From: an uncultured Bacilli bacterium
Lineage (GTDB): Bacteria; Bacillota_I; Bacilli_A; RF39; UBA660
Direction: 5' to 3'
Length of the DNA: 64,000 bases
Assembly: GCA_947626095.1 (NCBI GenBank)
Contig: CANQQV010000007.1
Location: 13,882-77,881 of the forward strand
Every line of letters starts with the position of its first letter. Positions within the stretch are counted from its first letter, which is position 1. Under the pieces are notes generated by a model that saw only the letters and a program-made list of their open reading frames with translations, did no database searches and was not told where the DNA came from. This document shows, one piece after another, positions 5,569-33,280 of this stretch. A program made the translations under genes and the position numbers.

Positions 5569-5649
5569 GAGTCTTCCACCCCAAATCTATTAATATTATA
5601 CTACATATCAAGTTAAAAATAAAAGGCTTTATTGACCTTTTACTTATTA

Positions 5650-8888: not shown

Positions 8889-8912
8889 AATTACCACTTC
8901 CACACTAAATAA

Positions 8913-8921
8913 AGTATATCA
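8913..8921 (-). promoter_or_regulatory. Extended -10 element (TGATATACT) upstream of the hydrolase gene
   Basis: Minus-strand TGaTATACT lies about 25 nt upstream of the ATG at 8888 and just downstream of a terminator hairpin. No good -35 element. Confidence 0.35.
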
Positions 8922-8934
8922 TAAAAGCCCAAAA

Positions 8935-8956
8935 GAAAAAAGCCGATAAACGGCTT
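8935..8956 (-). terminator. Putative intrinsic terminator after the virB4 C-terminal ORF
   Basis: Minus strand reads AAGCCG-tttat-CGGCTT followed by TTTTTC. The stem is short, 6-7 bp. Confidence 0.45.
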
Positions 8957-8961
8957 ATTTA

Positions 8962-10746
8962 CTATAATCCACCACCTGCACCAAAAGAATCTAATTCCTC
9001 TTGTGTACATAGGACTCTAACTCTCATACGTCGACTACCACAAATGAATAAAGCTTCACCTTGGTTATAATATTTAATACTATCCATTTCACTTTCATTT
9101 AAGTCAATTAATAAACCTAAATCTTCAACCGCTTGTTTCTTTAAGTTCATTACTAAATAATACGAAGCATTATCAAATATTGCTTTACCATGAACAATTA
9201 AGTTTGGTGCCGCAAAATCAGTAGGTTGTTGTGTAATCAAAATAGTACCAGTATTATACTTACGAGCACGTCTTTGCATTTGGGCTAAGAACTCAGCACC
9301 TAATTCATTTCTCGTTGATAATAAAACGTGAGCTTCATCAACACATAAAACAGTTGTTGTTTCTTTATCAAGACATAATCCCCAAGCATACTTCAAAATA
9401 TTAAAGAACAATGCATTTCTAATATTTTCATCACTATTCATTAATTCTTTAATATTAAAAACAATTATATCACTATTGATATTTAAAGTTGTATGACCAC
9501 AGAAATAATATCTTAATTCCTTCGTTAATGGACGAACTTTTAATTCAAGTCTTTCCATAACATCTCTTTCACGTGTCTTATCAGGCATTGAAAGTAAACG
9601 ACCTTTAATTGTTGCATAAACATCATCAAATGTTGGAAAATCTTCTGATTTCAACGTTGCAAAATTAGTATCAAAGTCTATTTTATAACGTTTATATGTA
9701 TCTTGAACTACTTCACTAAACATTGTTAAAACATCTTCTTCAATACTTGGTGAATAATACTTCATAAACGCTTTTAATGATTGTAAAGCTCTAGTTAAAA
9801 CAGTATAACCTAAACCCTGGTCTAACTCATCTTGATCAGCATCTGGTACAACTTCAAGTGGATTTATCATACCATAATCTCCACCTTTACCTAAATCAAG
9901 GTAACTACCATTTACATTACGACACATTTCTTCAAGTTCACCCTCAGGGTCAACACAAATTACTTTATATCCGTTTCTAATATGACTTCTAATTAATAAC
10001 TTAGCCGCAGTTGATTTACCACTACCAGAAGTACCTAAAATAATCATATTAGCATTATTTCTATTATGTTCTTTTTTTATTTTAAATAAGAATTGATTAA
10101 ATAAGATAACACCACCAGAAAAATCAACACCCATTAAAGTTGAATCTCCTGGATCCTTAATACTATCAAAAACAAAAGGATACATTGCAGCTATTGTAAT
10201 AGAAGGTATTGGTGTTCCAATTCTATTTTCAATATCTTGTTTAGGGAATATTGGAATAATTGACTTAAGAACCTTCTCTTGTTCAAACATAAGAGGAATA
10301 GCCTTCATACCTAAAGCATCAACATAACTACGTACTTGCATTTTCTTCATTTCAAGTTCTTCTTCACTATCAGCTGTAATCATAATATGTAATTGAAAAT
10401 CAAAAATTCTTGCTTGTGTTGCTGCTAGCATTGAAATAAATCCTTCTAATGACTCATAATCTTGTCTAATTCTCTCTTGAATAGTTTGATCTCTCTCAGA
10501 TTGATAACGCATCTTCAAATCAGCTATCTCTTTATTAAGCATACTTTGTAAAGTTGAGAATTCAATTGGAATATGTTTAGCTACCAACTTAACTCCAGAT
10601 ATATAAGTTAAATCAGATAAATATCCAGGATTAATAAACTTAGGATAACTAATAACAGTCATTATTGTCGCATTCTTACCACTTATGATAAATTCCATTG
10701 GTTTAAATTGTAGCCCTTTAGGAGCTACTTCACTTTTTATATTCAT
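8962..10746 (-). CDS. virB4: VirB4-family T4SS ATPase, C-terminal (ATPase) part
   Basis: 594 aa. Walker A MIILGTSGSGKSTAAKLL, Walker B VLCVDEAHVLL, TGTILITQQPTD. Its start overlaps the stop of the preceding ORF (ATGA at 10743-10746). Confidence 0.85.
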   Translation of the reverse strand: MNIKSEVAPKGLQFKPMEFIISGKNATIMTVISYPKFINPGYLSDLTYISGVKLVAKHIPIEFSTLQSMLNKEIADLKMRYQSERDQTIQERIRQDYESLEGFISMLAATQARIFDFQLHIMITADSEEELEMKKMQVRSYVDALGMKAIPLMFEQEKVLKSIIPIFPKQDIENRIGTPIPSITIAAMYPFVFDSIKDPGDSTLMGVDFSGGVILFNQFLFKIKKEHNRNNANMIILGTSGSGKSTAAKLLIRSHIRNGYKVICVDPEGELEEMCRNVNGSYLDLGKGGDYGMINPLEVVPDADQDELDQGLGYTVLTRALQSLKAFMKYYSPSIEEDVLTMFSEVVQDTYKRYKIDFDTNFATLKSEDFPTFDDVYATIKGRLLSMPDKTRERDVMERLELKVRPLTKELRYYFCGHTTLNINSDIIVFNIKELMNSDENIRNALFFNILKYAWGLCLDKETTTVLCVDEAHVLLSTRNELGAEFLAQMQRRARKYNTGTILITQQPTDFAAPNLIVHGKAIFDNASYYLVMNLKKQAVEDLGLLIDLNESEMDSIKYYNQGEALFICGSRRMRVRVLCTQEELDSFGAGGGL

Positions 10747-11336
10747 TGTGTTCTCACCGTCCCAAAAGTCGTTGTCATACCACCATTTAAGAAATTATCT
10801 AAGATCATTCTTAAATCGGCATTTGAAACTTGAGTTGAATTAATGGAAGCATTAGCAAGTCCCGCAATTAAATTACGAATACGTTTTTGAATAATTTCCA
10901 TCCTTTTTTCTTTAAATAATATAAAATACTCAGTATCTACAACATTATATTCCGCCCCCATAAAGGCATTAGCTTTATTAATATCTTGGATAATAAGTTT
11001 TCTAATAGTTCCATCCCCACATTTTTGATATAAAAGTTGTAACTGTGATAAATACAAATTAATATCAACTGGACGATCTGCTACTACTAACCAAAACTCA
11101 TAATCAATCATATTATAAAAGTTTTGTAAATTGAAGATAACGTTTTCTCTTTCACCAGCATCCAAAATAAAGATATTTTTAGGTGCTACTTTAATTCCAG
11201 TAACATAATAACCATTATCTAACTGAATCATTCCATTCATTATATTCTTAATAGGAACCCAGTCTTCAGAATATTTACTAGAACCATCACTACTTGAATT
11301 GCTGTTTACTTGTTCTATCATCGCCATACCTTGCAC
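10743..11336 (-). CDS. VirB4-family N-terminal domain encoded as a separate ORF
   Basis: 197 aa. DWVPIKNIMNGMIQLDNGYYVTGIKVAP resembles the N-terminus of Gram-positive VirB4 homologues. 197+594 aa is about the usual single-chain VirB4 size. GTG start with GGAGAGG 5 nt upstream. Confidence 0.6.
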   Translation of the reverse strand: MQGMAMIEQVNSNSSSDGSSKYSEDWVPIKNIMNGMIQLDNGYYVTGIKVAPKNIFILDAGERENVIFNLQNFYNMIDYEFWLVVADRPVDINLYLSQLQLLYQKCGDGTIRKLIIQDINKANAFMGAEYNVVDTEYFILFKEKRMEIIQKRIRNLIAGLANASINSTQVSNADLRMILDNFLNGGMTTTFGTVRTQ

Positions 11337-11628
11337 ACCAACCTCTCCAATAATATTTTTTTCTTCCAGTATAAAATCTATATATATTACCCAATAATGT
11401 CATAACATTATGATAATTAGGTACCGGAGCAACCAAAAAGGATGCAAATAAGGCAGGTGCTAATAATGCAAACATAACACCTGTACTATTAGATTCTATT
11501 AATAATAGTAATAAAACTGTTATTCCAACTCCTGTTAAAAAGATTGCCAAATCAACAGGAGTGAAAAAACTAAGTATTAATTGTGACTTTTTTGAGTTAG
11601 CTGGAATCAAGAAATTATTTCCATTCAT
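11290..11628 (-). CDS. VirB3-like small membrane protein (TcpE/PrgI-like)
   Basis: 112 aa. Two central TM helices and a basic Y/W-rich tail (RKKYYWRGW). It sits immediately upstream of virB4, as VirB3/TcpE/PrgI normally does. Confidence 0.55.
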   Translation of the reverse strand: MNGNNFLIPANSKKSQLILSFFTPVDLAIFLTGVGITVLLLLLIESNSTGVMFALLAPALFASFLVAPVPNYHNVMTLLGNIYRFYTGRKKYYWRGWCARYGDDRTSKQQFK

Positions 11629-11649
11629 ATATCACACATTCCCTTCATT

Positions 11650-14478
11650 CTATGATTTTTTACTTTCCTTTTGCGCTCTTTCACGACTCTTAGCATTACG
11701 ATATGTATCAGAATCTCTGAAATTCTGTTCAGCAGTTTCTGCAGTAGTTTTCATCTTAGAAGCTCTAGATTCTGCTTTTTGTCCAGGAACAGTAGATCTC
11801 GAACTATCAACCTCAGTACCACTACTTGCTACATAGCTTCGGAAATCCTCTGCTGAAATATTAGAACGTTCGACTGTAGCTCCATTTTTAACAGTATATT
11901 TAACATCATCACCACTTGCATCAACCTCTACTGTACGACCGTTCTTTAATTCCAAAGTAAATCTTCCTACGCCTTTGTTCATTGTTGTAAAGTCTACAAC
12001 ACCACTAATAGCATTTGCTCCAAAGTTTTCAGTTATATAATCACCAAGTGATTGTTGACCATTAAATAATACATCACGATAAGTATCTAAATCTTGTTGA
12101 TGAGTTTCAAAGAACGCTTTTAAAGCTCTTGAAGTATCATTATCTATTCCAGATGAAGCTTCAACCAATTTTCTTGCAACAGCTTCCTTCTTAGCCGCTT
12201 TAAGATCATCATCAGCTTTTTTACGATCTGCTAATAATTCTTCTTGGGCTTTTGCATATTCAGCTGATCTAACATCTACAGAATAATCAGTACGTTTAAA
12301 TGTTGATTGACCTAAATCTTTCATTTTACTAGAAATTAATGTTTCTCTTCTTCTTGCATAATCAGCATCACTTTCACCAGCTAATCTAGCTAAAGCACCA
12401 GCAGCTGTAAGATCATTAGTAGCCTTTTCACGTAAAGCATTAGAATAAGCATAATCTGCTATATCTGTTCTTGCTAAGTCATCTATACGACGTTGTGCCT
12501 TATTAACATATTCATCTTTACCAACAATAGTATTTTCAAGTTGTGATTTAAGACCTGCCAAATCTTGGAAAAGCTTAACTTGTTTATCCATTTTAGACGT
12601 ATCAATTGTACCAGTCGCCCAAACTGTAGCTTTCTTATAAGCATTGTTTACAGCTGTACCAAGAGCTGTAGAAGAATCCATTCTAACACGAGCATCAGTT
12701 AAAGCATTAGCAGCTGCTTCTAATGCCGCATCAGCTGCAACTTTTTGTGCTTGCGTAGCAGAAGGATCATGTGCTAATCTATTAACTTCTTCTTGTGCAG
12801 CTTCATAAGCAGCTCTCGCTCTATTATAAGCCGTTACATCAGAAGCATGTTGTTCTTTACGTTCATCTCTATCTACACCACGTTGGAAAGCTGCTTCATT
12901 AGCTGTACCTGCAACTCTTGTAGCTTCAGCATGGGTATTTGCCATCTTATGACCTTCACCAGGTCCAAATTGTTGCCAAGAACTACGTGCCATTGCTGAA
13001 GCACCTCCAGCAAACGCAGAACCCAATCTTTTAAATGCTCCTTGACCTTTATCTTTACCTTTATTCCAGTTTTGAACAGCAGTTTGTAAACCAGATCTTG
13101 CAACTGCTTCAGCTGCAAATCCTCCACCTTTTGCAAATTTCTCACCAATACCAAGTTTCATATCACCTTTCTTTATTCCTAAAGAACTAGTAATAAAATC
13201 TGGTGCACTTCTTGCAAAAGCAACTAAACCTAAAATAAGTAAAGCTAAAGCTAACATCGTTTCAATTCCTGATAAATTTTGATTGCCCCATAAAGCATCA
13301 ACTGACGAGAACATCTCCGTTAAATGACAAATTATATAAACGACAATATAAACTACTGAAATTCTAACAAAAACCTCCATAAAAGTCGAAACAACCGATT
13401 TTAAATACTGACTAAAATTTGATTTAAATGAAGGTAATACCTGCATAATGAGCGGCACTGGCGCAATAATCTGATAATAAGCTAACTTAGCTGCTCTAAT
13501 ACCCATATCAATACTAAATGATATAAAAGCATATAAAGTAAAAGCACCAGCTATAGTTGATAAACCAAATAAATAAGTTATATCCCCATCATCAACATAG
13601 TTATCGAGGAATACTGTAAATACCCCAAATGATCCCCCACCAGCAGCATACGCATAAGCTTCAGATAAAGTTATCGAATCACCATTAGTAATATTACTAA
13701 CTTTTGAGGCAGTCATACCATCTACAACACTTGTAATACATGAATAAATAGCGGCTGCACCTAATAAAACACTAGCAATTTGTCCAATAACTGGTACACC
13801 ATTAACAGCAACAGCCCCAGCTGCTAAACCAGCACAAGCACCTAAATAAGCCGCACTACTTAAGAAATAATCCTTAGGATCAGCCTCTATTTCATCAGCC
13901 GTCTTACCACTATCCTCAGATGGAAAGAAAAATGCTTGCCATAAACTAACCGCAGTAACACCGCCACCTATATGTTTAATTTGTTCATCAACATTAACAT
14001 TTTGTTCAATCGGAATCGATGAATCACCAACATCAACACTCGACTGTCCCATGTTAATTTCCAAATCACTATTACCTCTAAAAAAGATTTTCGCTAAAAC
14101 ATCATGTTCCAAGAATAAACTTTGTCCTTGATACATAACATTAAAAATAACAGGAGCTAAAGCTAACCCAACAACAGCTATAACAATTCTCTTAACTATT
14201 TGAGGACCAAGCTCATTTTTCATTGATTGATCAGGATCAATAATCGCTCTTAATATGGCATAAGCCAAAACAAAAAGCATTACAACCCCAACAATGGCAT
14301 AAACCTTATTAGCTATATCAGTATAAGCATCAGAAGATAATAATCTTGCTCCAGAAATAGCCATAAATATCCTAAAAACAGGAGCTATATTACCATAAAT
14401 AACCATTGAATCTAAAAGTAAAATAATACCTACAAATCCACTAGTAAGAACAGATGTTAATTTAAATAAAACATGCAT
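11650..14478 (-). CDS. VirB6/TcpH-like polytopic T4SS channel protein with a long Ala-rich coiled-coil tail
   Basis: About 942 aa. The N-terminal ~470 aa has many TM helices; the C-terminal ~470 aa is hydrophilic, Ala/Lys/Asp-rich and helical. The position between VirB2-like and VirB3/4 genes fits. RBS AGAGGTGA lies before the ATG at 14478. Confidence 0.6.
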   Translation of the reverse strand: MHVLFKLTSVLTSGFVGIILLLDSMVIYGNIAPVFRIFMAISGARLLSSDAYTDIANKVYAIVGVVMLFVLAYAILRAIIDPDQSMKNELGPQIVKRIVIAVVGLALAPVIFNVMYQGQSLFLEHDVLAKIFFRGNSDLEINMGQSSVDVGDSSIPIEQNVNVDEQIKHIGGGVTAVSLWQAFFFPSEDSGKTADEIEADPKDYFLSSAAYLGACAGLAAGAVAVNGVPVIGQIASVLLGAAAIYSCITSVVDGMTASKVSNITNGDSITLSEAYAYAAGGGSFGVFTVFLDNYVDDGDITYLFGLSTIAGAFTLYAFISFSIDMGIRAAKLAYYQIIAPVPLIMQVLPSFKSNFSQYLKSVVSTFMEVFVRISVVYIVVYIICHLTEMFSSVDALWGNQNLSGIETMLALALLILGLVAFARSAPDFITSSLGIKKGDMKLGIGEKFAKGGGFAAEAVARSGLQTAVQNWNKGKDKGQGAFKRLGSAFAGGASAMARSSWQQFGPGEGHKMANTHAEATRVAGTANEAAFQRGVDRDERKEQHASDVTAYNRARAAYEAAQEEVNRLAHDPSATQAQKVAADAALEAAANALTDARVRMDSSTALGTAVNNAYKKATVWATGTIDTSKMDKQVKLFQDLAGLKSQLENTIVGKDEYVNKAQRRIDDLARTDIADYAYSNALREKATNDLTAAGALARLAGESDADYARRRETLISSKMKDLGQSTFKRTDYSVDVRSAEYAKAQEELLADRKKADDDLKAAKKEAVARKLVEASSGIDNDTSRALKAFFETHQQDLDTYRDVLFNGQQSLGDYITENFGANAISGVVDFTTMNKGVGRFTLELKNGRTVEVDASGDDVKYTVKNGATVERSNISAEDFRSYVASSGTEVDSSRSTVPGQKAESRASKMKTTAETAEQNFRDSDTYRNAKSRERAQKESKKS

Positions 14479-14489
14479 TAAAATCACCT

Positions 14490-14879
14490 CTAACTAATAC
14501 CACACGTACCATACCAACCTAATAGACCAAACAAGAAGTTTATTAAATCAGGAATAAAGAAAAGGATTATCGCATAAACAATTCTCTTACCTGTCATCTT
14601 AGCCGCTTTAGCTAAAGCTTCTTTATCTTGACTAGCCGTTGCCTTTACAAAATCAGCAATAGACATTGCTAAACACAATAATGGTGCAGCATATTTAAAC
14701 ACATTAAACATTTGTTGCAAAAAATCAATTACTTCTTTATCAAAAACGCCACCACAATCATCACTATCAGCCAAACTATAAGTAACTTCATAAGAATTAT
14801 CTAGTGCTTTTACCTCACTAGTAACTAAAAATAATCCCCCAATTAATACTAAAATAATCAAAAATAATTTTCTATGCAT
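14490..14879 (-). CDS. VirB2/TrbC-like pilin-type mini-protein (paralogue 2)
   Basis: About 129 aa. Signal peptide (..SEVKA/LD), then two TM helices separated by a basic loop (ATASQDKEALAKAAKMTGKR). Paralogous to the 14965-15285 product. RBS GAGGTG. Confidence 0.5.
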   Translation of the reverse strand: MHRKLFLIILVLIGGLFLVTSEVKALDNSYEVTYSLADSDDCGGVFDKEVIDFLQQMFNVFKYAAPLLCLAMSIADFVKATASQDKEALAKAAKMTGKRIVYAIILFFIPDLINFLFGLLGWYGTCGIS

Positions 14880-14902
14880 AGAAAACACCTCATATCATAG
14901 AA

Positions 14903-14964: not shown

Positions 14965-15285
14965 TTAGCAATTTCCTGAATTCTTAACACAACTAGCACA
15001 TACATCATAGTCGCCACCTGCTGAATCTACTAAACTAAATACTAGTCCAACTAATGTTGGTACAAACCAAATAGCGATACCAGCAACAGCTCTCATAGCT
15101 AATTGTTTCATTGCTTTTTTAATTTCATCATCTTTAGAAGCAACAACTGCTTTACCTAAATCTATACAACCAAATATTATAATTAATAGTGGAATAACAA
15201 TTTTAAATACTCCTAATATTTTTCCTACAACAACCCAAATATCTTTTGTTTGAGCACAAAAATTAACAGCTGCTAATATATCCAT
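14965..15285 (-). CDS. VirB2/TrbC-like pilin-type mini-protein (paralogue 1), monocistronic
   Basis: About 106 aa from the ATG at 15285 (AAGGAG 9 nt upstream). Two TM helices with basic loop KAVVASKDDEIKKAMKQLAMR and a Cys-rich C-terminus (CASCVKNSGNC). It has its own promoter and terminator. Confidence 0.5.
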   Translation of the reverse strand: MDILAAVNFCAQTKDIWVVVGKILGVFKIVIPLLIIIFGCIDLGKAVVASKDDEIKKAMKQLAMRAVAGIAIWFVPTLVGLVFSLVDSAGGDYDVCASCVKNSGNC

Positions 15286-15313
15286 ATAAAACATCTCCTT
15301 CATTTCTAATATA

Positions 15314-15342
15314 ATTGTATTTAAATTTACAAAATATGTCAA
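15314..15342 (-). promoter_or_regulatory. Sigma-A type promoter TTGACA-17-TACAAT for VirB2-like paralogue 1
   Basis: Read on the minus strand: TTGACA tattttgtaaatttaaa TACAAT. It lies between the TadZ-like stop codon (15352) and the AAGGAG RBS. Confidence 0.6.
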
Positions 15343-16465: not shown

Positions 16466-17062
16466 TCAACTAACATAATCTTCTGCTGTTATGCCTTCCC
16501 CTTCATCTTGAGGGTCATATATTTCATCAGAAGTTCCATCTACTTTTACTGATAAGAATTCCTCTAAAACAGGAACTTCAAATTTATAAAATAATCTAAC
16601 TTTATAATACACTGCCTTATATCTGCCTGTTTGAGTATTGGCATTATACTTTGCAAAACAATAATAATATTTTTTACTAGAATCAGCAGGTTCAAATTCA
16701 GAAGCAGGACCACTTCCACTACGAAGTTCAGAAACTCCATACCAATTACCTGAAATATCTCCTGCAGTATGAGGACAATAACCCATAGCGTCATAATTAT
16801 TTCCCATTAAATAAAGATTAATAGTTTCAATAGTATTAACATTTATCTTAATTGCTGAACCATTTATTAATGATGTACCATCATGAGTTCCTGGACTTAC
16901 AGATTTTGTAACTCCTTTATGCTTTTCAATAATCGTTAAAACTTCATTTTTTATTTTAAAAGACTTTGAGTAATTAATATTAATAATGATATAAGCTGAA
17001 AATAAAGCAATAAAAACTACTATTAAACCTAAAAGCCAAATATTTACAATTCCATTTTTCAT
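16466..17062 (-). CDS. TadE/TadF-like pseudopilin
   Basis: 198 aa. A short N-terminus then a hydrophobic helix (MKNGIVNIWLLGLIVVFIALFSAYII), followed by a Cys-containing globular domain. Paralogous in layout to the 17063-17608 product. Confidence 0.5.
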   Translation of the reverse strand: MKNGIVNIWLLGLIVVFIALFSAYIIININYSKSFKIKNEVLTIIEKHKGVTKSVSPGTHDGTSLINGSAIKINVNTIETINLYLMGNNYDAMGYCPHTAGDISGNWYGVSELRSGSGPASEFEPADSSKKYYYCFAKYNANTQTGRYKAVYYKVRLFYKFEVPVLEEFLSVKVDGTSDEIYDPQDEGEGITAEDYVS

Positions 17063-17608
17063 CTAACTACCACCATAACATCTATCATTGATTTCATCGA
17101 AATCATTTACTAAATAAATAATTGAAGTTTCTCCTGAAATATTTATTTTAAACATACTTCTTAAGATTGGCCAATCCAATCTAAAGAAAACAACCGCCCC
17201 ATAATACGCAGATTCAGGATGCCCTACTGGTCCAGTCGTATAAATAACTGGGTCTTCGTCACCAGTACTTGAACTACGAGACGTAATCATATACTTAGTA
17301 ATACAATAATTAGCATCACCAGACCATCTAGGTTGTGGTGTTATATCACTTAATTTAAAATGAGCCCAACAATTACCATCTTCAGGACATTTACCGACTG
17401 AAGAATAACCAATACCTTTTAAATATTCATTAATTTTAGTAATCGAATCATTATTAATTCCGTGTGCTCTTTCAATTGTAATTAATATTTCATCTTTAAT
17501 TTTATAACATCTTGAATAATTCGTTGAAACACTAACAAAAGTTGTAAATAACGCTAAAAAAGATATTACTAAAACAAAAATCCATGTTCCTCCTATAGCT
17601 TCTTTCAA
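17063..17608 (-). CDS. TadE/TadF-like pseudopilin (TTG start)
   Basis: 181 aa. MKEAIGGTWIFVLVISFLALFTTFV shares the MKEA-G leader with the two pilins. TTG start with AGGTG 6 nt upstream. Its stop abuts the next start (TAGATG). Confidence 0.5.
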   Translation of the reverse strand: MKEAIGGTWIFVLVISFLALFTTFVSVSTNYSRCYKIKDEILITIERAHGINNDSITKINEYLKGIGYSSVGKCPEDGNCWAHFKLSDITPQPRWSGDANYCITKYMITSRSSSTGDEDPVIYTTGPVGHPESAYYGAVVFFRLDWPILRSMFKINISGETSIIYLVNDFDEINDRCYGGS

Positions 17609-17617
17609 TGTTTACAC

Positions 17618-17854
17618 CTACCCTCTAAATGGGCACATAAAGACTTCGTCAGACCCATCATTTGGATTTTTACAATATGCCATTAAAGTATTTGGATCAT
17701 ATCCATTATCGCACATTGCATTAGCGCAAGTTGCTCTATCTTGCATACCATCTTTAATTATAGGCCAAATAAACATAAAGAAAAAAGCCGTAAGCAAAGC
17801 AACGGCTGAAACGACAATTACAGAACCAGTTAATTCACCTGTAGCTTCTTTCAT
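17618..17854 (-). CDS. Short Flp-like pilin (P2)
   Basis: 78 aa. MKEATGELTGSVIVVSAVALLTAFFFMFIW then a 45-aa head with 4 Cys. RBS GAGGTGA. Confidence 0.55.
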   Translation of the reverse strand: MKEATGELTGSVIVVSAVALLTAFFFMFIWPIIKDGMQDRATCANAMCDNGYDPNTLMAYCKNPNDGSDEVFMCPFRG

Positions 17855-17883
17855 TTCTAATCACCTCAATAATAATTCAAAAA

Positions 17884-18156
17884 CTAATTTGTTCCTGAGC
17901 AATGTTTTGAATAACTACGATTATTATATGTAGCATTACAAGTAAAGTTTTGGCAATTAACACTAGTACCATTCATAGCACCAGTAGTAATATTTCCATC
18001 ATAATTACCATCAGCATCAATATTTGAACATGCAGTTTGCATTGCAATATTCGCTTGAATTTGTGGCATAATAAATACTGTAAATAATGCTGCAATCGCC
18101 GCAATTGCAACAACTGTAATAACTGTCATGTTTAGTTCACCTGTAGCTTCTTTCAT
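17884..18156 (-). CDS. Short Flp-like pilin (P1), sequon-rich
   Basis: 90 aa. MKEATGELNMTVITVVAIAAIAALFTVFIM then a head with 4 Cys and six N-x-S/T sequons. First gene behind a strong promoter. RBS GAGAGG. Confidence 0.55.
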   Translation of the reverse strand: MKEATGELNMTVITVVAIAAIAALFTVFIMPQIQANIAMQTACSNIDADGNYDGNITTGAMNGTSVNCQNFTCNATYNNRSYSKHCSGTN

Positions 18157-18243: not shown

Positions 18244-18290
18244 AAAAAAAAGGACTTAGTTTTTAATTATTATTATCACTAACTAAGTCT
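18244..18290 (-). terminator. Intrinsic terminator after the flavoenzyme::GT-C gene
   Basis: Minus strand reads GACTTAGTT-(19 nt loop)-AACTAAGTC followed by eight T. The 5' arm lies in the last codons of the ORF. Confidence 0.5.
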
Positions 18291-21200
18291 TTTCTAACAT
18301 AGATTTTATATGAGTTTTCTTTTTCATAAAACAGCTCATAATCTTTAAAATTATCATACGTAAACAATCGATCATATGATATGACAAATAAATGTGTAAA
18401 ATTATAAGCTTTTACAAACTCTGCTATATCACCATTGCCCACTTGAATAGCAATATAATCACCAAAAATATCTCTACCACCATTCATAGTTAAATAAAAT
18501 ACTTCTGCTCTAGTATCCATAAAAGATTTAATACCACGCCACTCTAAGTATCCACCAATATCATAATTTGTATATATCTTTATATCTTTAGGATCATATA
18601 CCTCTAATAGTTTATCAACACCTTCTTTTAAATATGATTCCTTTTGACTATTCATTATTGTTTTACCAAAATGAATACTTACAACCCCTAATAAGACATA
18701 AAATAAAATTAAAGTTATTCGATATACATTTTTCTTAGGAATTAAACTTATTTCATCTAGACAATTATTCCTAAATATATTTTTAAAAAAGTAACAAAAA
18801 GGATAAGTAACAAACATTACAAAAAAAGGAAAACTTTTTACAGCCATAAAAGATAAAATAATACAGCCAAATAACATACATAAATAACTAATCTTTACTT
18901 CTTTCTTTTTATTATAATTAACCATAAATATAATAAAATATATAAACAATACACCAATAGTATATAAACCAGGAAATTCCAATATTCTCATTGGTCTCAT
19001 TTCACCAATTATTTCAGCTCCTTGACCACCGTATGAATTAATAAAATAACATATTGCATCTAATCCATAAGGATTAACAAAACCAGCTAGAAAAATAAAC
19101 AGACAAATTATGATTAACCACCTAAAATCATAAACATTTTTCTTTTTTAAAATAACTTCTTCAAAAAATCCCTCAGCAATAAAAGGTAGCATAAAAATAA
19201 ATATAAACCACCATAAAGCAGCATTAAGATTTATTAGCAAAACAGATATAATTGGTAAGAAAAATAACACTTTATAGTTACCCTTTTTCATGAATATTTC
19301 CATAATATACACATCTAATGCTAACAATATATAGGTAAAAACTTGTGGTCTAGTAGTTATAAAATAGTTATTTAACAATAATAAATTTATTATCAAACTT
19401 ATTATTCCTGATAAAACATAATTATTATCGCTTACCAACATACAAATCTTATAAATAATAAATAATAGTAAATAATTAATTAATATTAAAACTATAAAAA
19501 CCCAAACAATTCCTGCTTTATTATACAAAGTATAAAATCCTACAGAAAATAACCATTGTTGCATTACAAAAGGTAAATCTTCATGCATTGTAAATGGTTC
19601 AATCGTCGGAAACCCATGTTCTAAAACATACCTTCCATGATTTAATAAAAACCATGAATCATTATCTAAAGTCCACTTACTAAAACACCACCACAATAAT
19701 GGTACAGAAATCATAAATATTAATAAAAACCACTTACTTATTTTTATCTTACTAATTTTATTTTTTAATTTACTAACAATATTTTTTAACTTATTATTTT
19801 TTTCATCCTTTTCCTCATGATATTCTTTTTCCGTATTTACATTCCAAATATCATCTTTAGTTGTTTCATCACCTAAAATACAATCAACAGCTTTCATACC
19901 AGTCATCATTGAATGATCCATATTATTATAACGGTGTTGACCATTACGACCAATACAATATAAATTATCACATTTATTAATATAACTAATAACTTTATCT
20001 ATTTCACTATAACTATCAAAATATGCTGGATAAGCTTTCTTGACCTTTTCACGATGAGAATCTAAAACATCATCACGATCTATAATCCCCATTTTTACAA
20101 GCTCATCTATTGCAAAGTTCTTACACTCTTCAACACTCATATTCCAAAATTCATCATTTTCATTACAGAAATATTCTAAGCCAACCCAAACTGTATCTTT
20201 AGGTTTCTTAACCATATAAGGACTCCAATTATTAAATATTTGAATTCTTCCCAACTTAACATCTGGTTCTTGAACATATATCCAACAATCAGGCACTATA
20301 TTATTTAATGTTTTTATCTTTGTTTCATTTTTTAAATTAAGTTTTTTTACCAACAACCCTACTGTAACAAAATCACGATAAGGTAAATTATCAGCAATAT
20401 TATAAACTTTCTTAGGAACATTATTCATATTACAAACTAAGTCTTTTAATGGCATACTAGAAATAAAAATATCGCCTTTAACAATTACTTCTTTTCCATC
20501 AACTAAACAAGAAATTGACTTAATTTTATTTTTATCATTATTTATCTTTACAACTTGGTGATTTTTTAAAATAGTCCCACCCATTTTTTCAACTTCTTCG
20601 GCAACTTTTTCCCATAATTCACCTGGACCATATTTCGGATATATATATTCTTCTATTAAAGATGTTTCCTTATCTTTATTTTTTTTCTTAAATAATTTTA
20701 AAATTGAATCTTTTAAAACAGCAAAGATCGAAAGTCCTTTAACTCTTTGAGCTCCCCAATCTGCTGATATATTTTTGGGATGTCTTCCCCATAGTTTTTC
20801 CGTATAACCTTCAAAAAAAGTTGAATATAATTTTTTACCGAAACGATTAATATAAAAGTTTTCTAAATTATCTTCTTTTTTCTTAATAACAATACTTTTT
20901 AAATAACTAAATCCACTTTGAATTGTTCTTACAAGTCCTAAATTCTTAAAAGTTTGCAATTTCATACTAACGGGATAATCAAAGAACTTTTTTAAGTAAT
21001 AAATACGTGAAACACGATTTCTAACTAAAAAAACATTATCTTCTTTTTCTGGATCCGGTCCACCATCTGATAAACTTTTTTCTCTTTTTAACATTTTATC
21101 ATCAAAAGATGGCTTTCCTTGAATAGGCATTATACTTTGCCAAAAATCATTAACACGTTTTTCTTTAGAAAAAAATCTATGTCCACCAATATCCATTCTA

Positions 21201-21352
21201 TTGCCTTTATAATTAACAGTTTTAGAAATTCCACCAATTGAGTTACTCTCTTCTAAAATCGTAACATTATAACCTTTACTTCTTTTTAATAATTCATAAG
21301 CTGCCGTAAGTCCAGCTGGACCTGCACCAATAATAATTGCTTTTTTCTTCAT
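18263..21352 (-). CDS. Fusion protein: FAD/NAD(P)-binding oxidoreductase (amine-oxidase/UGM-like) + polytopic GT-C-like membrane glycosyltransferase domain
   Basis: About 1029 aa from the ATG at 21352 (RBS GGGGGA). Contains [19 protein letters not shown] dinucleotide fold and GGHRFF. After about aa 535 there are more than 10 TM helices with LDNDSW (DxD-like) in the first external loop, then a ~130-aa C-terminal soluble domain. Confidence 0.55.
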
Positions 21353-21396
21353 TAAAATCCCCCTAAGAAAGATATCCATATATCATATATAGATAT

Positions 21397-21449: not shown

Positions 21450-22238
21450 TTATGAACCAATCATGTTCATAACCGCAATTAGTAGTAGAATCATAACACC
21501 GATACCAGTACATACTAACATACTCATTGTTTTATTTTCCATTTTATCCAAACGCTCTTTATATCGCGTCTCACGAGCTTTTTGTTGTAAGTTTGAAATA
21601 GTCTTTGAGAAAGTAATTAATTGTTCTTGTTTCCTCTCTTGACGACCTAAACTTAAACGATATAACAAACGCATCATACGCATTGAATCACGAACTGGAT
21701 ACATCTGCGCAAATTCCATATATGGTGTAACAGTTGCATCACCGGCATTAATCTTATTAATCATATCGATTAAACCTTCTCTAAATATCTCCGGTGCGTC
21801 ATTAATTGATTTACCTAAAGCAACTGGAACAGTATAGTGTTGAATTAAAATTTCTAGACCTTTTAAGTAATAAGGTAACATTGAATCTATTTGTAATAAG
21901 TGGGCTTTATAAAAACTCTTTAAATTCAAATAATCCAATTTAAACATTCCATACCCACCAACAACAGCTAAAACAACTTTAACAGCTGTTAAATTAGATA
22001 TCATAATAAATATCAATAATATTATAACTATTAAACCATTCTTTATTCTCTTTTGGAATAAAACATCAGAATCAAGACCTTCACCATATTTAGCTCTAAC
22101 TAAGAAATCATAATCTTCTTCTTTTAGCTTCATAAAGATATCTTGATTATCTTGAATAAATTTATTAGGTTTAATATAACCATTAACAGTTAAAACAATA
22201 AAAGCAACTAATCCAATAACAATAACTTCAAAATACAT
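21450..22238 (-). CDS. tadC: TadC-like platform protein (T2SSF domain)
   Basis: 262 aa. TM helices flank a helical cytoplasmic domain (LPYYLKGLEILIQHYTVPVALGKSI..) with a T2SSF-like pattern. Follows tadB with a 2-nt gap. Confidence 0.65.
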   Translation of the reverse strand: MYFEVIVIGLVAFIVLTVNGYIKPNKFIQDNQDIFMKLKEEDYDFLVRAKYGEGLDSDVLFQKRIKNGLIVIILLIFIMISNLTAVKVVLAVVGGYGMFKLDYLNLKSFYKAHLLQIDSMLPYYLKGLEILIQHYTVPVALGKSINDAPEIFREGLIDMINKINAGDATVTPYMEFAQMYPVRDSMRMMRLLYRLSLGRQERKQEQLITFSKTISNLQQKARETRYKERLDKMENKTMSMLVCTGIGVMILLLIAVMNMIGS

Positions 22239-22240: not shown

Positions 22241-23134
22241 CTACTCAACCCCCACATCTTCGTTATAATATTTTTCCCCTGTTACTAAGAAATAACAATT
22301 GATAATTATTATTGCATGTAATATTAATTGAACATACCAGTTTTCTAACATTGCTAAATATTCAGATCTACCAAATAATAGCTGCATAACTAAAACCAGT
22401 AAGAATAAAGCCATACCAAATGTTAAGAACTTTTTATGGAATGTTTGTCTATCCATTCTATCACGATAAACACCTTCAACCAAAGCATCTATATCCATTG
22501 ACATTAATTCTAGTGCTTCACCAGAATCTCTTGCACCTTCTTTAGTAATCTGCAAGAATAATTGGTGCATATTTTTAACCATATAATACGGATAAGCATT
22601 GTTAAAGAAGTCAATTGATTGATCAATCGTACCATTATCATAAGACATTTGAATCATTCTTTTAACATCCCTTAATACAGGATCTTGTAAAATACCAGAA
22701 TCTCTAACACCTTCTAAAGCTTTAACAAAACTCTGAGTTGTATTAAATTCCATAATAACGTTTGTCGTATAAACTTGAACTTGTTCAAATAAATATTCAC
22801 TATATAATCTTTGTGTCCTTAAATAATTTAAATAAGGAACAAAACATATCGCAATTATTGTATAAACAACTGTTACAGGAATACTATAGAAATATAAGAA
22901 AGTTATACCTGCAGCTGCTCCACCCATAAGAAGAACTTGCGTAGCATACTGCCTAGGTGTATATTCATATCCTAATTCTTTAGTTTTCTCTTTAACCTCA
23001 CGATAACTATAAGGCGCATATGTATTATAAACATTAGATACAGTATCAGCAAAAAATTTATAAACATTATCACCAGTATTAAAACGATATGCTAAAACGA
23101 AAACTGCTATAACTAACCATATAACTAATTCCAT
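22241..23134 (-). CDS. tadB: TadB-like platform protein (T2SSF domain)
   Basis: 297 aa. N-terminal TM, a paired TM, then a ~130-aa helical domain (FVKALEGVRDSGILQDPVLRDVKRMI..GEALELMSMDI) and C-terminal TMs. Directly downstream of the ATPase. Confidence 0.65.
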   Translation of the reverse strand: MELVIWLVIAVFVLAYRFNTGDNVYKFFADTVSNVYNTYAPYSYREVKEKTKELGYEYTPRQYATQVLLMGGAAAGITFLYFYSIPVTVVYTIIAICFVPYLNYLRTQRLYSEYLFEQVQVYTTNVIMEFNTTQSFVKALEGVRDSGILQDPVLRDVKRMIQMSYDNGTIDQSIDFFNNAYPYYMVKNMHQLFLQITKEGARDSGEALELMSMDIDALVEGVYRDRMDRQTFHKKFLTFGMALFLLVLVMQLLFGRSEYLAMLENWYVQLILHAIIIINCYFLVTGEKYYNEDVGVE

Positions 23135-23149: not shown

Positions 23150-24715
23150 TTATAAAACATCGCTAGTTGGTGTTGAAGCAACATTTTGTCCAACACTATT
23201 TGGCATCACAGCTGTCGGAAAAATATTTGGTTGAGGGCTTGGTGCTACACTCGTTGCTGGTGTAGCAGGTGCAGCTGGCGTAACAGGACTAGTTGTAACA
23301 GCCGAAACAGGAGCTGATACTGAAGCCTGAAATGGAACCACAGCAGCTGGTGCTACATTTTGCGTTTGAGGCACAGCTGGTGCTGGAACAGGTTGTGAAG
23401 ATGCAGCTACACTAGGCTGAGGCACAGCAGATACTGGCACAGTTGGGATAGGTTGCTCTTCTAAAACCTCTTGGCTGTTAACAACTTGAGAGTTATTAAC
23501 AGCAGGAGTAGTTCCACCATTTTGCGCTTCCCCATTCGTTGAATCACCCTCATTAAGAGCATCAATCAAAGTATTCTTAGTTTCCTTATTTGCTAAATTA
23601 TCATCTTTACTGTCTCTTAAATTAGATAAATCTTCCTTAGATTCAGCATCCCCTAAACCAAAAATATCATCATTTTCAAAATAAACATTACCAATAGCTA
23701 AATAATCAATTAGCTTCTTAGTAGGATTATGTAAAGTAACTTTACCATCCAATGTTTTAGAATATAAAATATTAGACTTTGGCTTATTAGTTTCGTCATC
23801 AACATAAAATTCACATATCTCCATAATTTCACGTTGGAAACGATCTAAAGCCTTAGAATAATAACCTTTAACATATATACCAATTTGAATATATCTATGA
23901 ATTGAAGATAGATATTGTTCAATATCTTGGCTACCTTCAAGTAACGCATACATACGCATTGGTATACTTGATGCCTTATCGGCATGAATTGTTGAAATAA
24001 TATGGTGTCCAGAAGAAATAGAGTTACGAACTGCCATAACTGCTTCAGCTGAACGAACCTCGGCAAGTAATATCCATATTGGGTTCTGTCTCATGCAGGC
24101 TACTAAGGCATCAGTATAAGATGCTATATTATTAGTCTTCATGGCCACAATATCACGATGAGGGAAAATTTTATCTAAGTGAAGTTCCAAAGTATCCTCA
24201 ATAGATATAATTTTTTCATCTTCTTTTGTATTACTAGCTAAATATTTAACAAGTTCTGTTTTACCAGAACCAGTTTCTCCTGCAATCATTATATTGCAAT
24301 GACCCCAAACACATTTTATTAAAAAATCATGCATTTGATCAGTAATATATTGTTCGTTAATTAATTTTTCTTTATTTAAACGAATCTTAGCAGGAGTTTT
24401 ACGTATCAAGCACGCGATTCCATTTGTAGCAATGGAATCGTGGACAAAGTTCATACGTAATTCAGCACTTTCAGAGTCAAGAAATGGATGAGCCATATTG
24501 AAAGTTCTACCCATAACATTTGCACATTGAAAGGCTAATTTTTCCATAAACGGATTATTTATATCAGGTCTTTCAACTTGATAAACACCTTTAGACAATG
24601 TCTTTAACCAAACTTGGCCACCATTACTATATGAAATATCGGTAATATCATCATCCTCTAAAAACTCAGATAATGGGCCAAAATCCATCTGGGAGAAAAC
24701 ATTCTTCTCATCCAT
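23150..24715 (-). CDS. tadA: TadA/CpaF-type secretion ATPase (T2SSE/VirB11 superfamily) with a Pro/Ala/Val-rich C-terminal tail
   Basis: 521 aa. Walker A IMIAGETGSGKTELVKYL, Walker B WILLAEVRSAEA, His box SGHHIISTIHA. The last ~140 aa are low-complexity P/A/V/S/T. RBS AGAGGGTG. Confidence 0.8.
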   Translation of the reverse strand: MDEKNVFSQMDFGPLSEFLEDDDITDISYSNGGQVWLKTLSKGVYQVERPDINNPFMEKLAFQCANVMGRTFNMAHPFLDSESAELRMNFVHDSIATNGIACLIRKTPAKIRLNKEKLINEQYITDQMHDFLIKCVWGHCNIMIAGETGSGKTELVKYLASNTKEDEKIISIEDTLELHLDKIFPHRDIVAMKTNNIASYTDALVACMRQNPIWILLAEVRSAEAVMAVRNSISSGHHIISTIHADKASSIPMRMYALLEGSQDIEQYLSSIHRYIQIGIYVKGYYSKALDRFQREIMEICEFYVDDETNKPKSNILYSKTLDGKVTLHNPTKKLIDYLAIGNVYFENDDIFGLGDAESKEDLSNLRDSKDDNLANKETKNTLIDALNEGDSTNGEAQNGGTTPAVNNSQVVNSQEVLEEQPIPTVPVSAVPQPSVAASSQPVPAPAVPQTQNVAPAAVVPFQASVSAPVSAVTTSPVTPAAPATPATSVAPSPQPNIFPTAVMPNSVGQNVASTPTSDVL

Positions 24716-24746: not shown

Positions 24747-25550
24747 TTAACACAATGTTAAATCAGTACACTCATCAGCAATAATGTGAGTTTGATTTAT
24801 AATAAGTGATCTTAATTCTTCATTAGATAATTTTGTTGCATTAGCACTAGTTGCATAAGTAGTATTACGTGCAATTGGTTCAATGACAATGCCCAATTTT
24901 TCTGCCTTCTTAAGTAGTAAGAATATTTCTTCAGGAACAGCAAAGAATAAATAGTCAGCATTACCAGGGTTATCTTTATCAGCAAAAACATTATTACCTT
25001 TTGCATCCTTAACCGCTAAAACTTCAATTGAAGCATATAATCTACCATATACTATCTTATTTTCATCTTCTTCAACAGTAGAAGATAAATATAAGTCTAT
25101 CTTATTTTCTGGCATTATTGAATTTGCCATAATAGTACTACTATTAACCTTTAATTGATAAACTGTATATCCATCTTGAATATCAGAGAACATTGAATCA
25201 GGCATATCCTCTTCATTCATTAACTGTTCATCATAGAAGAAACTATTTCTAGCTATCTTTCCATCATAAGCAACAACTTTACCAATAATAGCATCAGGTT
25301 GAGTTACAATATTATCCATATTTGCAATAACATCTTTTGGTAAATCAGCATACCCTATATCATCAGCTGTAATTTTCTTACGAGCAACTAAAGTATTTTT
25401 ACAAAAAGGAACTCTTGTAGGTTGAATAGATTGAGTTACTCTCCAACTATATCCTAAATATAAAACAACTAAACCAATTAACACACCTAATATTGTAATT
25501 GTATTTTTATTACTTAAAAACTTTTTAAAAGGTACAAGTAAATTTCCCAT
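24747..25550 (-). CDS. CpaB/RcpC-like pilus assembly protein
   Basis: 267 aa. N-terminal TM (ITILGVLIGLVVLYLGY) followed by a SAF-like segment (TLVARKKITADDIGYADLPKDV) and a beta-rich domain, positioned upstream of tadA. RBS AAGGAGGA. Confidence 0.5.
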   Translation of the reverse strand: MGNLLVPFKKFLSNKNTITILGVLIGLVVLYLGYSWRVTQSIQPTRVPFCKNTLVARKKITADDIGYADLPKDVIANMDNIVTQPDAIIGKVVAYDGKIARNSFFYDEQLMNEEDMPDSMFSDIQDGYTVYQLKVNSSTIMANSIMPENKIDLYLSSTVEEDENKIVYGRLYASIEVLAVKDAKGNNVFADKDNPGNADYLFFAVPEEIFLLLKKAEKLGIVIEPIARNTTYATSANATKLSNEELRSLIINQTHIIADECTDLTLC

Positions 25551-25573: not shown

Positions 25574-26083
25574 CTATGGATAATAATCACAATAACTATT
25601 ATTCATCTTATCAGATACACAATTTAAACCGTCATCATCACAGTCCAAATTTGCTGAATCAAATTCAACGATCAAATCTATTGAATTAACAACATCTAAA
25701 TCAGTCATAGCATGTTCTCCTGCCGTTTCCTCAGTATCACGACCAATTATAAAACCAGCAGTTGTTGTTGATATTTTGACACTTACTTTAGGAGGAGATT
25801 CATATAAATCATAAAATTGAATATTATAACTATCAGTTACTGAAACAGTTTCAGCGAATCTTCTTAGGAAGTTTTCAACGAAAACTTCCTTTAAGATTCT
25901 AACTTGTCCAGTTTGTGAATAATATCTATAATCAATTGCATCATACAATGCACTATTTGCTACTTCTTTCAATTGATAATAATCTTGAGTATTAGATGTC
26001 GTAGCATCATTTGTTAACATCATAACTGATGCTATAAAGATACCAAGAATTATAAACCAATAGCCCCAGTAGGATTCTTTCAT
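25574..26083 (-). CDS. TadE-like pseudopilin
   Basis: 169 aa. MKESYWGYWFIILGIFIASVMMLTNDA (short leader plus hydrophobic helix), with C-terminal Cys residues. RBS AAGGAG. Confidence 0.45.
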   Translation of the reverse strand: MKESYWGYWFIILGIFIASVMMLTNDATTSNTQDYYQLKEVANSALYDAIDYRYYSQTGQVRILKEVFVENFLRRFAETVSVTDSYNIQFYDLYESPPKVSVKISTTTAGFIIGRDTEETAGEHAMTDLDVVNSIDLIVEFDSANLDCDDDGLNCVSDKMNNSYCDYYP

Positions 26084-26099: not shown

Positions 26100-29000
26100 C
26101 TATTTAAATGCCAATCTATAATATTGTGTACTTTCAACAGGTTCCCATATGTTCTTAGCGGTTCCTGTTTCAATATAATCTATCCAACGACAGTTACCTG
26201 AAGCAATTTTGTTCTTCAATTCTTCCTTAGCAGAATCTGAATTAGAAGAAACTATTTCACAAACATTATTTTCACTTCTCATATTACTTAAATTATTTGT
26301 TCCAGCAGAAGCACCTGTTGAACTAAATAAGTCATTAAAGTTCTCTAAGAAATTACTTCCATAATGACCAAAGTTAGCAATGTAATTGTTCATATCATCT
26401 TCTTGATCACTAGTTGCAAACCAAGAACAACTTGAAGGATCATCACAAGAACCTAATGGTTGAATAGAAGCACGACCATAAATAGTCAAGTTATCGAAAT
26501 TAACTTCATAACCATATCTATCATTATAATCTCTTATAGCAGCTAAAGTTGTAGGTCTAAGTTCAAATGAATACTCTGGAGTAGTACCACCATCATTCAA
26601 ATAAACTTTTTCACCTTGTTCTTCAATTTCCTTCAAGGCAACTTCACCTTTATTAGTAATTAACTTATTACCGCCATAATAGAATACACCCCTATTAGTC
26701 CAGTTATTTCCAAGTTCTCTATCTGTAGGACTATTCAAGTCAGATAACGCTACAGTAGTTGTATATAGTCCAAGTGTACCTCTAGCTTTATCATACTCAG
26801 TTTCCCTATTGAAATCATAATCAAATCCAACAGAACTTGCAAACTCTTGCGCAGTTGTCTCAGTTTCAGAAGTATAAGTAACAATTGGATCACCACAACA
26901 TAAGCAAATATCTTCAACTACCTCATAGAAACACGTTCGTTTATTTTGTGGAATCAATGCCTCTGCATCACCCATGACTCGACCGAGCTGTCCATCACTA
27001 TAACTACCAATTTGTGTAAACTGATAAGTATATCTATATAAGTTTCGTGCCGTAGTCATACTTACTGGGAAGATATTTAAATTACCTTCAATATCTCTAT
27101 CATCACCAGTCATCGTACCACTGAATACCGACCAACCTTTTTTAGCCTTATCGGAGCGATCAGTATAACTAGGTCCGCCTTCACGTTTAGCAGCATTATC
27201 CCATGCATCCTCTAAATCATCACCATGTTCACGCGTATCATTTGGTCCAGTATACCAAATACCTTTATTTCGATAGAAACTACTATTAGTAATCGAAGCT
27301 TTAATATAATGAGCTTTAAAATAAGAAACATTAAAGCTATAACATTTTCCACCTTCCCATCGTGGAACACGCTCAGAAATTTGGAAAGTATAAGCATCAC
27401 CATTCTTATTATATCCAGTTCCAGTACCAGCAATTTCTCGACCAATAGAACATAAAGTTATAAGTTTAGTTACTACATGTTCTGAACCAGCATTATTTTT
27501 GATAGAAAGTGGCTTATTATCTTTATAAAATTCAGTACCTTCACCATACTTTTTGATTAAATCATCATCCATCCAAGGTCCATCTTCAGGGTCATAATAA
27601 GCAAATTCAAGATAGTTTCTTGCCAGTTTAACTGGTGTATCAGGTGTTTCTTCACAAGCTTCTTCACCAACCGCCAGTTCACAAGGATCTGTAAATCCAA
27701 CATAAGCATCTACCATCTTATTTGTACTCTTATTAAATCCTTCAGTAATACCCTCTTTTAAGAAGAATTTATCATTTAACTGATCATATTGAATTAAAAT
27801 ATTATCATCTTGCAATATAGTCATATAAAGTTTTTCATCATAATCATAAGAAACAAAAGGTTCAAACATTGTTAAGATTTGCATGAATGTCTTTGTACCA
27901 GTAAATGATGATTTATCAGTACTAGCTGGATTATTCGCTTTACCATTAGCATCATCGGTAGCATTATTTAATTCAAAGTGTTGACAATTCCAGAATTGTT
28001 CATACTTATTATTAATTATGTTCGCCGCACTAGTCATCTTCTGATAAGCAGGGCTCATTATAGCTTCACTTGCTGCTTTCATTTTATCAGAAAGATTCGT
28101 AAATGCAGTTTGCTTATTGGTATCAGTATTACCAAGATAACATCCATCAGCAGAAGTTGTTGGATTTTCCCCAGCTGTTTGACCATCATAACCAGCAGAA
28201 GTAGGTTTTGATGTAAATGTACAAGCAGTTCCAGATACCTTATCTTGCGAATAATCAGGTTTAGTAGGCGTTTTAACTGGATCGGAAGTAACATTATCAG
28301 TTACAGTGTAATTATTGTATGATCCTTGTCTTTCATCTCCATCACCTTGGAACTTCATATTCAATGATAATTCATAATGGCCATATCGAGTTGTATCGTT
28401 ATTATCAGATCTTATATTTTGAAGCGTACATTCCCAGTCACTATCTTCAGATTCATCTTCCTCTGTATCTTCATCATCTTCAACTTCATTATAAGTCCAT
28501 TGTAAACATCCTGAATCAGGAACAAACACTAATTTATCAGATGTATAATCTTGATCATCTATATCCGTATAAGCATGCGAAGCATTACTATATGTATTAT
28601 AGTTATTAACCATTATTTTAGACTGTTCAACCAAATCTCTCATAAATAAGTCATAATCAAGATACGTAGTATAACATGTACGACCACCTTGAATAAATAA
28701 ATTATTATTAGCATTTTGGAAGAATTTACCAGCTAAAACAGCATTTTTACCAACGAAGTTACCAAATGCTTCCATTGTAATTACCCAGTCTTCACGACAT
28801 GATACTTGACAATATTCATTACCTTGATAAGATGCAACCATTATCGAATTACCACGATCATCTTCTTTTTGATATACTGAAAGATCTCTCTCTGCATCTA
28901 CATCAGCTGCATAATTATCTTTAACATTAACAACACAAGTACCTATTGCTTCCGTGTACTTCTCCTCTGTACCAGTATAATAAGCACCTTCCTTTACCTC

Positions 29001-33260: not shown

Positions 33261-33280
33261 AAGAATAAAAGGTGATTAAT

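Follow-up and report, generated by a model that had tools for sequence, protein, structure and literature searches.

Candidate pilins with a conserved MKE..G N-terminus, encoded beside a type IV secretion system in uncultured gut Bacilli

The available text of two reports describes clusters that are among the closest known systems: DUF5411 genes that lie beside genes for CpaF and PilC/GspF in gut Clostridia (Roseburia, Ruminococcus and Eubacterium), predicted to be part of a secretion-related system (PMC9523054), and a Tad-like cluster of the uncultured order TANB77, which encodes unannotated pilin-like proteins of 143-236 amino acids (aa; PMC11680825). Two recent papers, a review and a survey of type IV secretion systems (T4SSs) in Patescibacteria, hold that the Gram-positive T4SSs are devoid of pili and, outside Patescibacteria, of VirB2 pilins; according to the review, type IV pili work with T4SSs in IncI plasmids and PAPI-1 (PMC12857230, PMC12102498). 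Here we analyze a 64-kb stretch of DNA from an uncultured Bacilli bacterium (contig CANQQV010000007.1, positions 13,882 to 77,881; the whole stretch is referred to as the window, and coordinates are those of the window unless a related locus is named) that encodes five proteins with a common MKE..G start next to a T4SS. These proteins are very probably subunits of an undescribed pilus that occurs in many uncultured gut Bacilli. An earlier note, made from the sequence alone, had read them as pilins or pseudopilins, and our results support this part of its interpretation: the N-terminal signature is distinct and strongly selected, and the pilin reading is well supported by gene context and by no curated model.

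Five families with a common N-terminus

The five proteins are encoded as follows.

17884-18156, minus strand: P1, candidate major pilin, 90 aa; start MKEATGELNMTVITVV; MKEATG/ELNMTV, one transmembrane (TM) helix, a head of about 45 aa with four Cys
17618-17854, minus strand: P2, candidate second small pilin and P1 paralogue, 78 aa; start MKEATGELTGSVIVVS; MKEATGEL, four Cys
17063-17608, minus strand: putative minor pilin or pseudopilin, 181 aa, TTG start; start MKEAIGGTWIFVLV; MKEAIGGTW
16466-17062, minus strand: putative minor pilin or pseudopilin, 198 aa; start MKNGIVNIWLLGLIVV; MKNGIVNIW
25574-26083, minus strand: pilin-like DUF5411 protein, 169 aa; start MKESYWGYWFIILG; MKESYWGYW; Pfam PF17424, E=2.1e-51

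All five begin with M-K-E or M-K-N and a few further residues ahead of a hydrophobic helix, and topology prediction gave each of them a single N-terminal hydrophobic segment. In this arrangement a short polar leader (six residues, seven in DUF5411) ends in a small residue and is followed by about 20 hydrophobic residues; the exception to Gly, Ser or Ala at position 6 is the 198-aa protein of the window, which has Val there. Gly stands at position 6-7 in four of the five proteins and at position 4 in the 198-aa protein; with this correction for the 198-aa protein, the conserved start (MKEA-G) described in the earlier note is real. The N-termini and coordinates quoted there agree throughout with the list of open reading frames (ORFs) and the raw sequence, our count likewise gives four Cys each in P1 and P2, and the polar leader with a hydrophobic helix behind it was found again as the one N-terminal segment of each protein. 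A six-frame scan of the whole window, at every possible start codon, for M[KR][EDQNHST][ASTG] with a hydrophobic stretch behind it returned the starts of the four clustered candidate pilins and no others.

The 181-aa and 198-aa proteins are paralogues of each other, and in alignments their likeness to DUF5411 is confined to the first 20 residues. Pfam and PDB searches found no relative of the 181-aa protein; the 169-aa protein scored 173.8 bits against PF17424 (DUF5411), above the gathering score (cut-off 30). The AF2 model of P1 consists of a helix at residues 5-45 and three strands (pLDDT 61, low confidence), and that of DUF5411 of a helix at residues 5-51 followed by strands (pLDDT 59, low confidence). 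P1 of the window also contains six N-x-S/T sequons within its 90 aa.

A profile search with P1 and P2 returned 2168 clusters at 90% identity, all of them unnamed or 'hypothetical' and none with a Pfam domain, and an exhaustive HMMER search of cluster representatives returned 615 clusters at 50% identity, almost all of which align residue 1 to residue 1. In a set of species-representative genomes at least 499 stretches were confirmed as matches, and 80 loci of relatives were kept from them; gene-presence counts given below are based on 84 loci, and the median identities of P1, the ATPase and VirB4 on 83. The family of MKE..G proteins is conserved across the 80 fetched assemblies, and it is widespread and unannotated. 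The record titles of the kept loci name uncultured gut Bacilli, under the labels Bacilli, Tenericutes, Mollicutes, Candidatus Coprovivens, and Clostridium sp. CAG:628 and CAG:1000. Several metagenome-assembled genomes with a Bacilli-type locus are titled Muribaculaceae or Bacteroidaceae (L012, L030, L038, L049, L052, L059, L060, L069 and L074) and another is titled Merdimonas (L031); these titles probably reflect errors of binning or labelling in the public record.

Conservation in P1 is concentrated at its start. Median identity is 100% over the first 12 aa, 67% over residues 1-45 and 27% over the Cys-rich head, as compared with 72% for the ATPase and 82% for the VirB4 encoded in the same genomes. 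N-termini of the P1 family read MKEATGEL, apart from rare and conservative substitutions (K to R; E3 to D or Q; T to S; E7 to D or N); Gly6 is replaced by Ser in three of 149 and by no other residue, and the MKEATG leader is 100% conserved in 80 P1 orthologues. Codon 4 of P1 appears as GCA, GCT or GCG, codon 5 as ACA, ACT or ACG, and codon 6 as GGA, GGT, GGC or GGG, and the encoded residues never change. Because codons 4-6 vary synonymously only, selection acts on the protein, and we rejected, on the same observation, the idea that the start is conserved as an RNA or translation signal. The MKE..G signature is no chance product, and it recurs in the N-terminal consensus of all five families:

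P1: MKEATGELNMTV
P2: M[KR]EATGEL
181-aa family: M[KR]EAIGG.W
198-aa family: M[KR][EDQN][SA]I[GSA]..W
DUF5411: MKE[SAT][YF]WGYW

Gly occupies position 6 in 90-100% of P1, P2 and the 181-aa family; members of the 198-aa family have Gly there in 61%, Ser in 19% and Ala in 12% (92% together), and Val in 5%, the window protein included. The N-terminus is the only part common to the five families, which are otherwise unrelated; the pilins of one system are usually alike at the N-terminus only. Inside the helix of P1, Pro31 is invariant.

The pilus module and its junction with a secretion system

On the minus strand the genes follow one another in the order 248-aa protein, 1950-aa protein, DUF5411, CpaB-like protein, ATPase, 297-aa protein, 262-aa protein, a variable glycosyltransferase-like gene, P1, P2, 181-aa protein, 198-aa protein, 361-aa protein, two PF18895 proteins and then the T4SS genes. 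As far as contigs reach, this order is identical in about 80 assemblies. The genes other than those of the five candidate pilins are the following.

26100-32698, minus strand: 248-aa secreted, C-terminally anchored protein and 1950-aa secreted Cys-rich giant; first genes of the locus
24747-25550, minus strand: CpaB/RcpC-like protein, 267 aa; TIGR03177 E=6.8e-9, below cut-off; Pfam RcpC E=2.3e-4
23150-24715, minus strand: secretion ATPase of the CpaF/VirB11/FlaI clade, 521 aa; Pfam T2SSE 3.4e-25
22241-23134, minus strand: polytopic protein by topology, 297 aa, 65% median identity; putative platform protein, placed by its position (that of TadB)
21450-22238, minus strand: polytopic protein by topology, 262 aa; putative second platform protein, placed by its position (that of TadC)
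18263-21379, minus strand: FAD/NAD-binding oxidoreductase (Pfam) fused to a large polytopic C-terminal domain, 1038 aa; variable insert upstream of P1
15352-16437, minus strand: conserved cytoplasmic protein, 361 aa; always after the minor pilins, in 81 of 84 loci
14965-15342 and 14490-14888, minus strand: two VirB2-like PF18895 (T4SS_pilin) proteins, 125 and 132 aa; E=2e-6 (above cut-off) and 1.8e-4 (below)
2842-14487, minus strand: Gram-positive-type T4SS with a VirB6-like 945-aa protein, a PrgI/TcpE-like protein, a TraC-like protein, VirB4, a SpoIID+NlpC/P60 hydrolase, a 258-aa lipoprotein and VirD4

The best PDB match of the ATPase is CpaF (1.3e-15), followed by VirB11 and FlaI. The enzyme, presumably cytoplasmic, ends in a low-complexity tail of about 150 aa that is rich in Pro, Ala, Ser and Val (23150-23600, minus strand); the ATPase of L042 is 393 aa long. 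The two polytopic proteins, compared with each other by hhalign, gave no relation, and their role as platform proteins (TadB and TadC) is putative, being read from position. The 361-aa protein may be TadZ-like, as its position and a GATT motif suggest; we take this motif to resemble that of TadZ.

The slot upstream of P1 holds two YfhO genes in L001-L004 (L001:5061-9929), and is empty in most loci. In Pseudomonas, pilin-glycosylation genes adjoin pilA, and by this likeness the gene or genes in the slot may be of an envelope- or pilin-glycosylation type. The 1950-aa giant (26100-31952, minus strand) had no Pfam match and was seen in 23 loci, with varying size and presence; it may be an adhesin that is carried by the filament.

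The pilus module and the T4SS form one co-linear array (2842-32698, minus strand), which is kept in about 80 assemblies; neither this junction nor the wide conservation of the family had been seen in the earlier note. In L042 (Clostridium sp. CAG:1000) the pilus part stands alone, without a T4SS, and is followed by the dlt operon, indicating that the pilus module is a separable unit. This stand-alone module ends in a homologue of the 125-aa PF18895 protein (L042:11872-12222), and the PF18895 protein may therefore belong to the pilus part. P2 is kept in 59 of the 84 loci and is missing from stand-alone modules. A role of the 181-aa and 198-aa proteins as VirB8-like parts of the T4SS was also considered; since the T4SS-free module retains one of the two, we rejected it.

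No relaxase or integrase was seen anywhere in the 64 kb, and housekeeping genes flank the array, which looks like a fixed chromosomal system and not a mobile element. Elsewhere in the window, immediately upstream of the gene for leucyl-tRNA synthetase (LeuRS), an ORF of 284 aa (49736-50590, minus strand) unites a fragment of the LeuRS editing domain with a NUDIX domain. P1 had no match in either a plasmid or a phage collection, and the system is therefore not a known mobile element. Divergent from the first gene of the locus lie the following neighbors.

32763-33979, plus strand: exported thioredoxin-like protein and Rce1/CPBP intramembrane protease (Pfam)
33272-33979, plus strand: the Rce1/CPBP protease of this pair; PF02517 E=7.7e-17

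A metallophosphoesterase is encoded beside the protease, and the divergent block, thioredoxin-like protein included, spans 32763-34947 on the plus strand. The thioredoxin-like protein may be a candidate for disulfide formation.

Proposed assembly and leader cleavage, and rival explanations

We favor a Tad-like type IV filament whose subunits would carry a short class-III-like signal that is cut after Gly by an A24 peptidase encoded elsewhere, and we give this reading as a whole a probability of about one half. A Tad-like filament with P1 as its major subunit is suggested by the anatomy of the proteins, by the combination of an invariant N-terminus with a hypervariable disulfide-rich head, by the gene context and by the layouts of the AF2 models. 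The word 'Tad' refers here to sub-threshold and clade-level sequence matches, as distinct from curated family membership. Such a filament would be made up of one major pilin, one second small pilin and three minor pilins, including DUF5411. Its subunits would be inserted into the membrane with the N-terminus inside and the Cys-rich head outside, and the leader, M-[KR]-E-[AS]-x-[G/S/A], would be removed after position 6 (7 in DUF5411) by the A24-type peptidase. The mature major pilins would then start with Glu (Glu7 of the precursor), which, at +1, might neutralize charge as Glu at +5 does in classical pilins. The CpaF/VirB11-clade ATPase, the two polytopic proteins and the CpaB-like protein would polymerize the subunits, and in this lineage the filament would work with the adjoining T4SS, probably for cell contact. 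Cleavage after position 6 is favored because the pattern of Gly, Ser and Ala at that position fits a class III cleavage site, where position -1 tolerates Gly, Ala and Ser.

Several results weigh against this reading. The profiles Flp (PF04964), N_methyl (PF07963) and TadE (PF07811), which the earlier note had proposed as a check, matched none of the five proteins of the window, nor any of 25 P1/P2 and 38 minor-pilin homologues (63 in all) with reporting at E<=10. The Glu at +5 of classical pilins is missing, and a cut after Gly6 would place Glu or Asp at +1 in P1 and P2. Foldseek comparison of the P1 and DUF5411 models with the PDB gave noise only and no pilin, a result that, with models of low confidence, decides neither way. 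In NCBIfam the ATPase scored almost equally as VirB11 (1.9e-31) and as a member of the TadA family (8.4e-30), both below the cut-offs, and neither the two polytopic proteins nor the 361-aa protein had a Pfam or PDB match. A Pfam scan of every ORF of at least 90 aa in the window found no Peptidase_A24, and no multi-TM ORF with a GxGD motif was found in the window or in 85 related loci (about 1.5 Mb; 86 stretches with the window). Finally, the putative leader varies no more than the mature N-terminus and helix behind it; such invariance is unusual in leaders that are cut off, and would fit an uncleaved tip equally well.

Other comparisons with known pilins bear on the form of the signal. A regular-expression search of the window and the related loci for motifs of the type G-F/M-x-x-x-E found none, and the Flp motif G/xxxxEY, at which that search was not aimed, is absent from the five N-termini as read directly off the sequences; together with the profile results, this bears out the lack of both hallmarks on which the earlier note had remarked. 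The minor pilins have no acidic residue at +1. The sole pilin-related profile match was to the archaeal Pilin_N (PF07790), which P1 matched over residues 6-78 with 19.1 bits, below the threshold of 25.2, and which was seen in two of the 25 members. P1 and P2 did not match the VirB2/T4SS_pilin profile (PF18895), and have one TM helix and not a two-helix hairpin; PDB profile searches with the minor pilins found nothing.

A TadV peptidase in or near the locus was found neither in the window nor in the 85 loci, and the earlier note, which had argued from the lack of a prepilin peptidase in the window, is correct on this point. The argument itself carries little weight, because prepilin peptidases are often encoded apart from their system and shared between systems; all MSH loci are without one, and TadV can be encoded apart from the Tad locus (PMC6668835).

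That a peptidase far from the locus is common also bears on an alternative in which the pilins stay uncleaved, Lys2-Glu3 keeps the tip near-neutral, and MKEATGEL belongs structurally to the core of the filament or serves the platform as a docking tag. This would account for a 'leader' that is conserved like the helix behind it (in all 80 P1 orthologues, under synonymous codon change), for an MKE[AS] start common to five families, and for the lack of an A24 gene in any of the 86 stretches. To our knowledge, though, every type IV filament described so far depends on an A24 peptidase and on a class III signal of known form; position 6 varies within Gly, Ser and Ala only, as at a cleavage site, and position 3 is not always acidic (MKN, MKH and MKQ occur), which weakens the idea of a charge pair. 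We consider the uncleaved state unlikely, if less so than the other alternatives. The leader might instead be cut by a protease of another kind, for example the Rce1/CPBP protease divergent from the first gene of the locus. Its PF02517 match is clear, no A24 gene lies nearby, and the protease recurs with the phosphoesterase next to the locus in about nine of the 16 loci with visible upstream DNA (CPBP identity 33-39%). The pair is not at that position in at least seven loci, though, and a CotZ-like gene further out is conserved too, so that plain chromosomal synteny explains the adjacency; we know of no precedent for a CPBP protease that processes pilins, and hold this explanation to be very improbable. 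A broader proposal takes up both ideas: a lineage of type IV filaments without A24, in which the pilins keep the MKEATGE tip or an unrelated intramembrane protease cuts them, and in which the filament is built into a Gram-positive secretion system with VirB2-like proteins, in gut Bacilli whose genomes are reduced according to the cited literature. We put this forward as a speculation that is probably wrong.

It is also conceivable that the five proteins are no filament subunits at all and act instead as bitopic membrane components or as substrates of the secretion apparatus, with one membrane-targeting tag in common. No pilin model matched above threshold, the ATPase scores equally as VirB11, and the structure models are weak, all of which speaks for such a role. 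Against it, the module also occurs without a T4SS, and a small protein at the front of the pilin block in which the N-terminus is invariant and the disulfide-rich head hypervariable shows the usual pattern of a major pilin; moreover, DUF5411 has already been found beside CpaF and PilC/GspF genes in Clostridia, according to the available text (PMC9523054). On balance this role is distinctly unlikely.

Comparison with known systems

As far as its sequence tells, the MKEATGE signal differs from every known pilin signal. P1 and P2 belong to a large family with a different, almost invariant signal, which the curated models tried fail to detect. Once defined, this signal would let such pili be annotated in gut metagenomes, and would make it simple to test whether the acidic residue may shift from +5 to +1 and whether the pilins need to be cut. 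With its link to a T4SS, the locus suggests one way in which Gram-positive bacteria might contact partner cells.

The locus resembles those of Flp/Tad pili in its very small candidate major pilin with several putative pseudopilin genes beside it, in the CpaF-clade ATPase and the CpaB-like protein, and in having two polytopic proteins at the positions of TadB and TadC and a cytoplasmic protein at the place of TadZ. It differs from them in that the G/xxxxEY motif, any match to PF04964 or PF07811, and a TadV in the locus are all lacking, in that Glu would stand at +1 and not at +5, and in that the platform and TadZ candidates are unrecognizable by sequence and the heads are Cys-rich. Archaeal type IV pilins (PF07790) share with P1 the weak profile match, a signal that does not require Glu at +5, and a Glx that in P1 would directly follow the cleavage site. 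In contrast to them, the match here is below cut-off and restricted to two of 25 members, and the hosts are bacteria; archaeal pilin leaders usually have Lys or Arg directly before the Gly, which is not so in MKEATG. In Methanococcus, EppA-dependent pilins have Gln at +1, which becomes pyroglutamate, and by analogy the Glu at +1 of P1 and P2 could be the counterpart of this Gln.

The clusters of the gut Clostridia and of TANB77 are alike in their origin from gut or uncultured Firmicutes, in their Tad-like ATPase, and in that the pilin-like status of their proteins comes from context and topology, and DUF5411 is common to the Clostridia clusters and the locus described here. Unlike here, the pilin-like proteins of both are larger, and the available text of the two reports makes no mention of MKEATGEL pilins or of a link to a T4SS (PMC9523054, PMC11680825). 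The thin pilus of IncI R64 and the pilus of PAPI-1 are similar in combining the genes of a type IV filament with those of VirB4 and VirD4, and the T4SS of Patescibacteria, with its VirB2-like arrays, is similar in that VirB2-like genes occur in a monoderm with no relaxase seen near them (PMC12857230, PMC12102498). In contrast to both the conjugation-assisting pili and the Patescibacteria system, the locus described here belongs to walled Bacilli, its filament would be Tad-like and not type IVb, and both of its modules run along the same strand as a single array.

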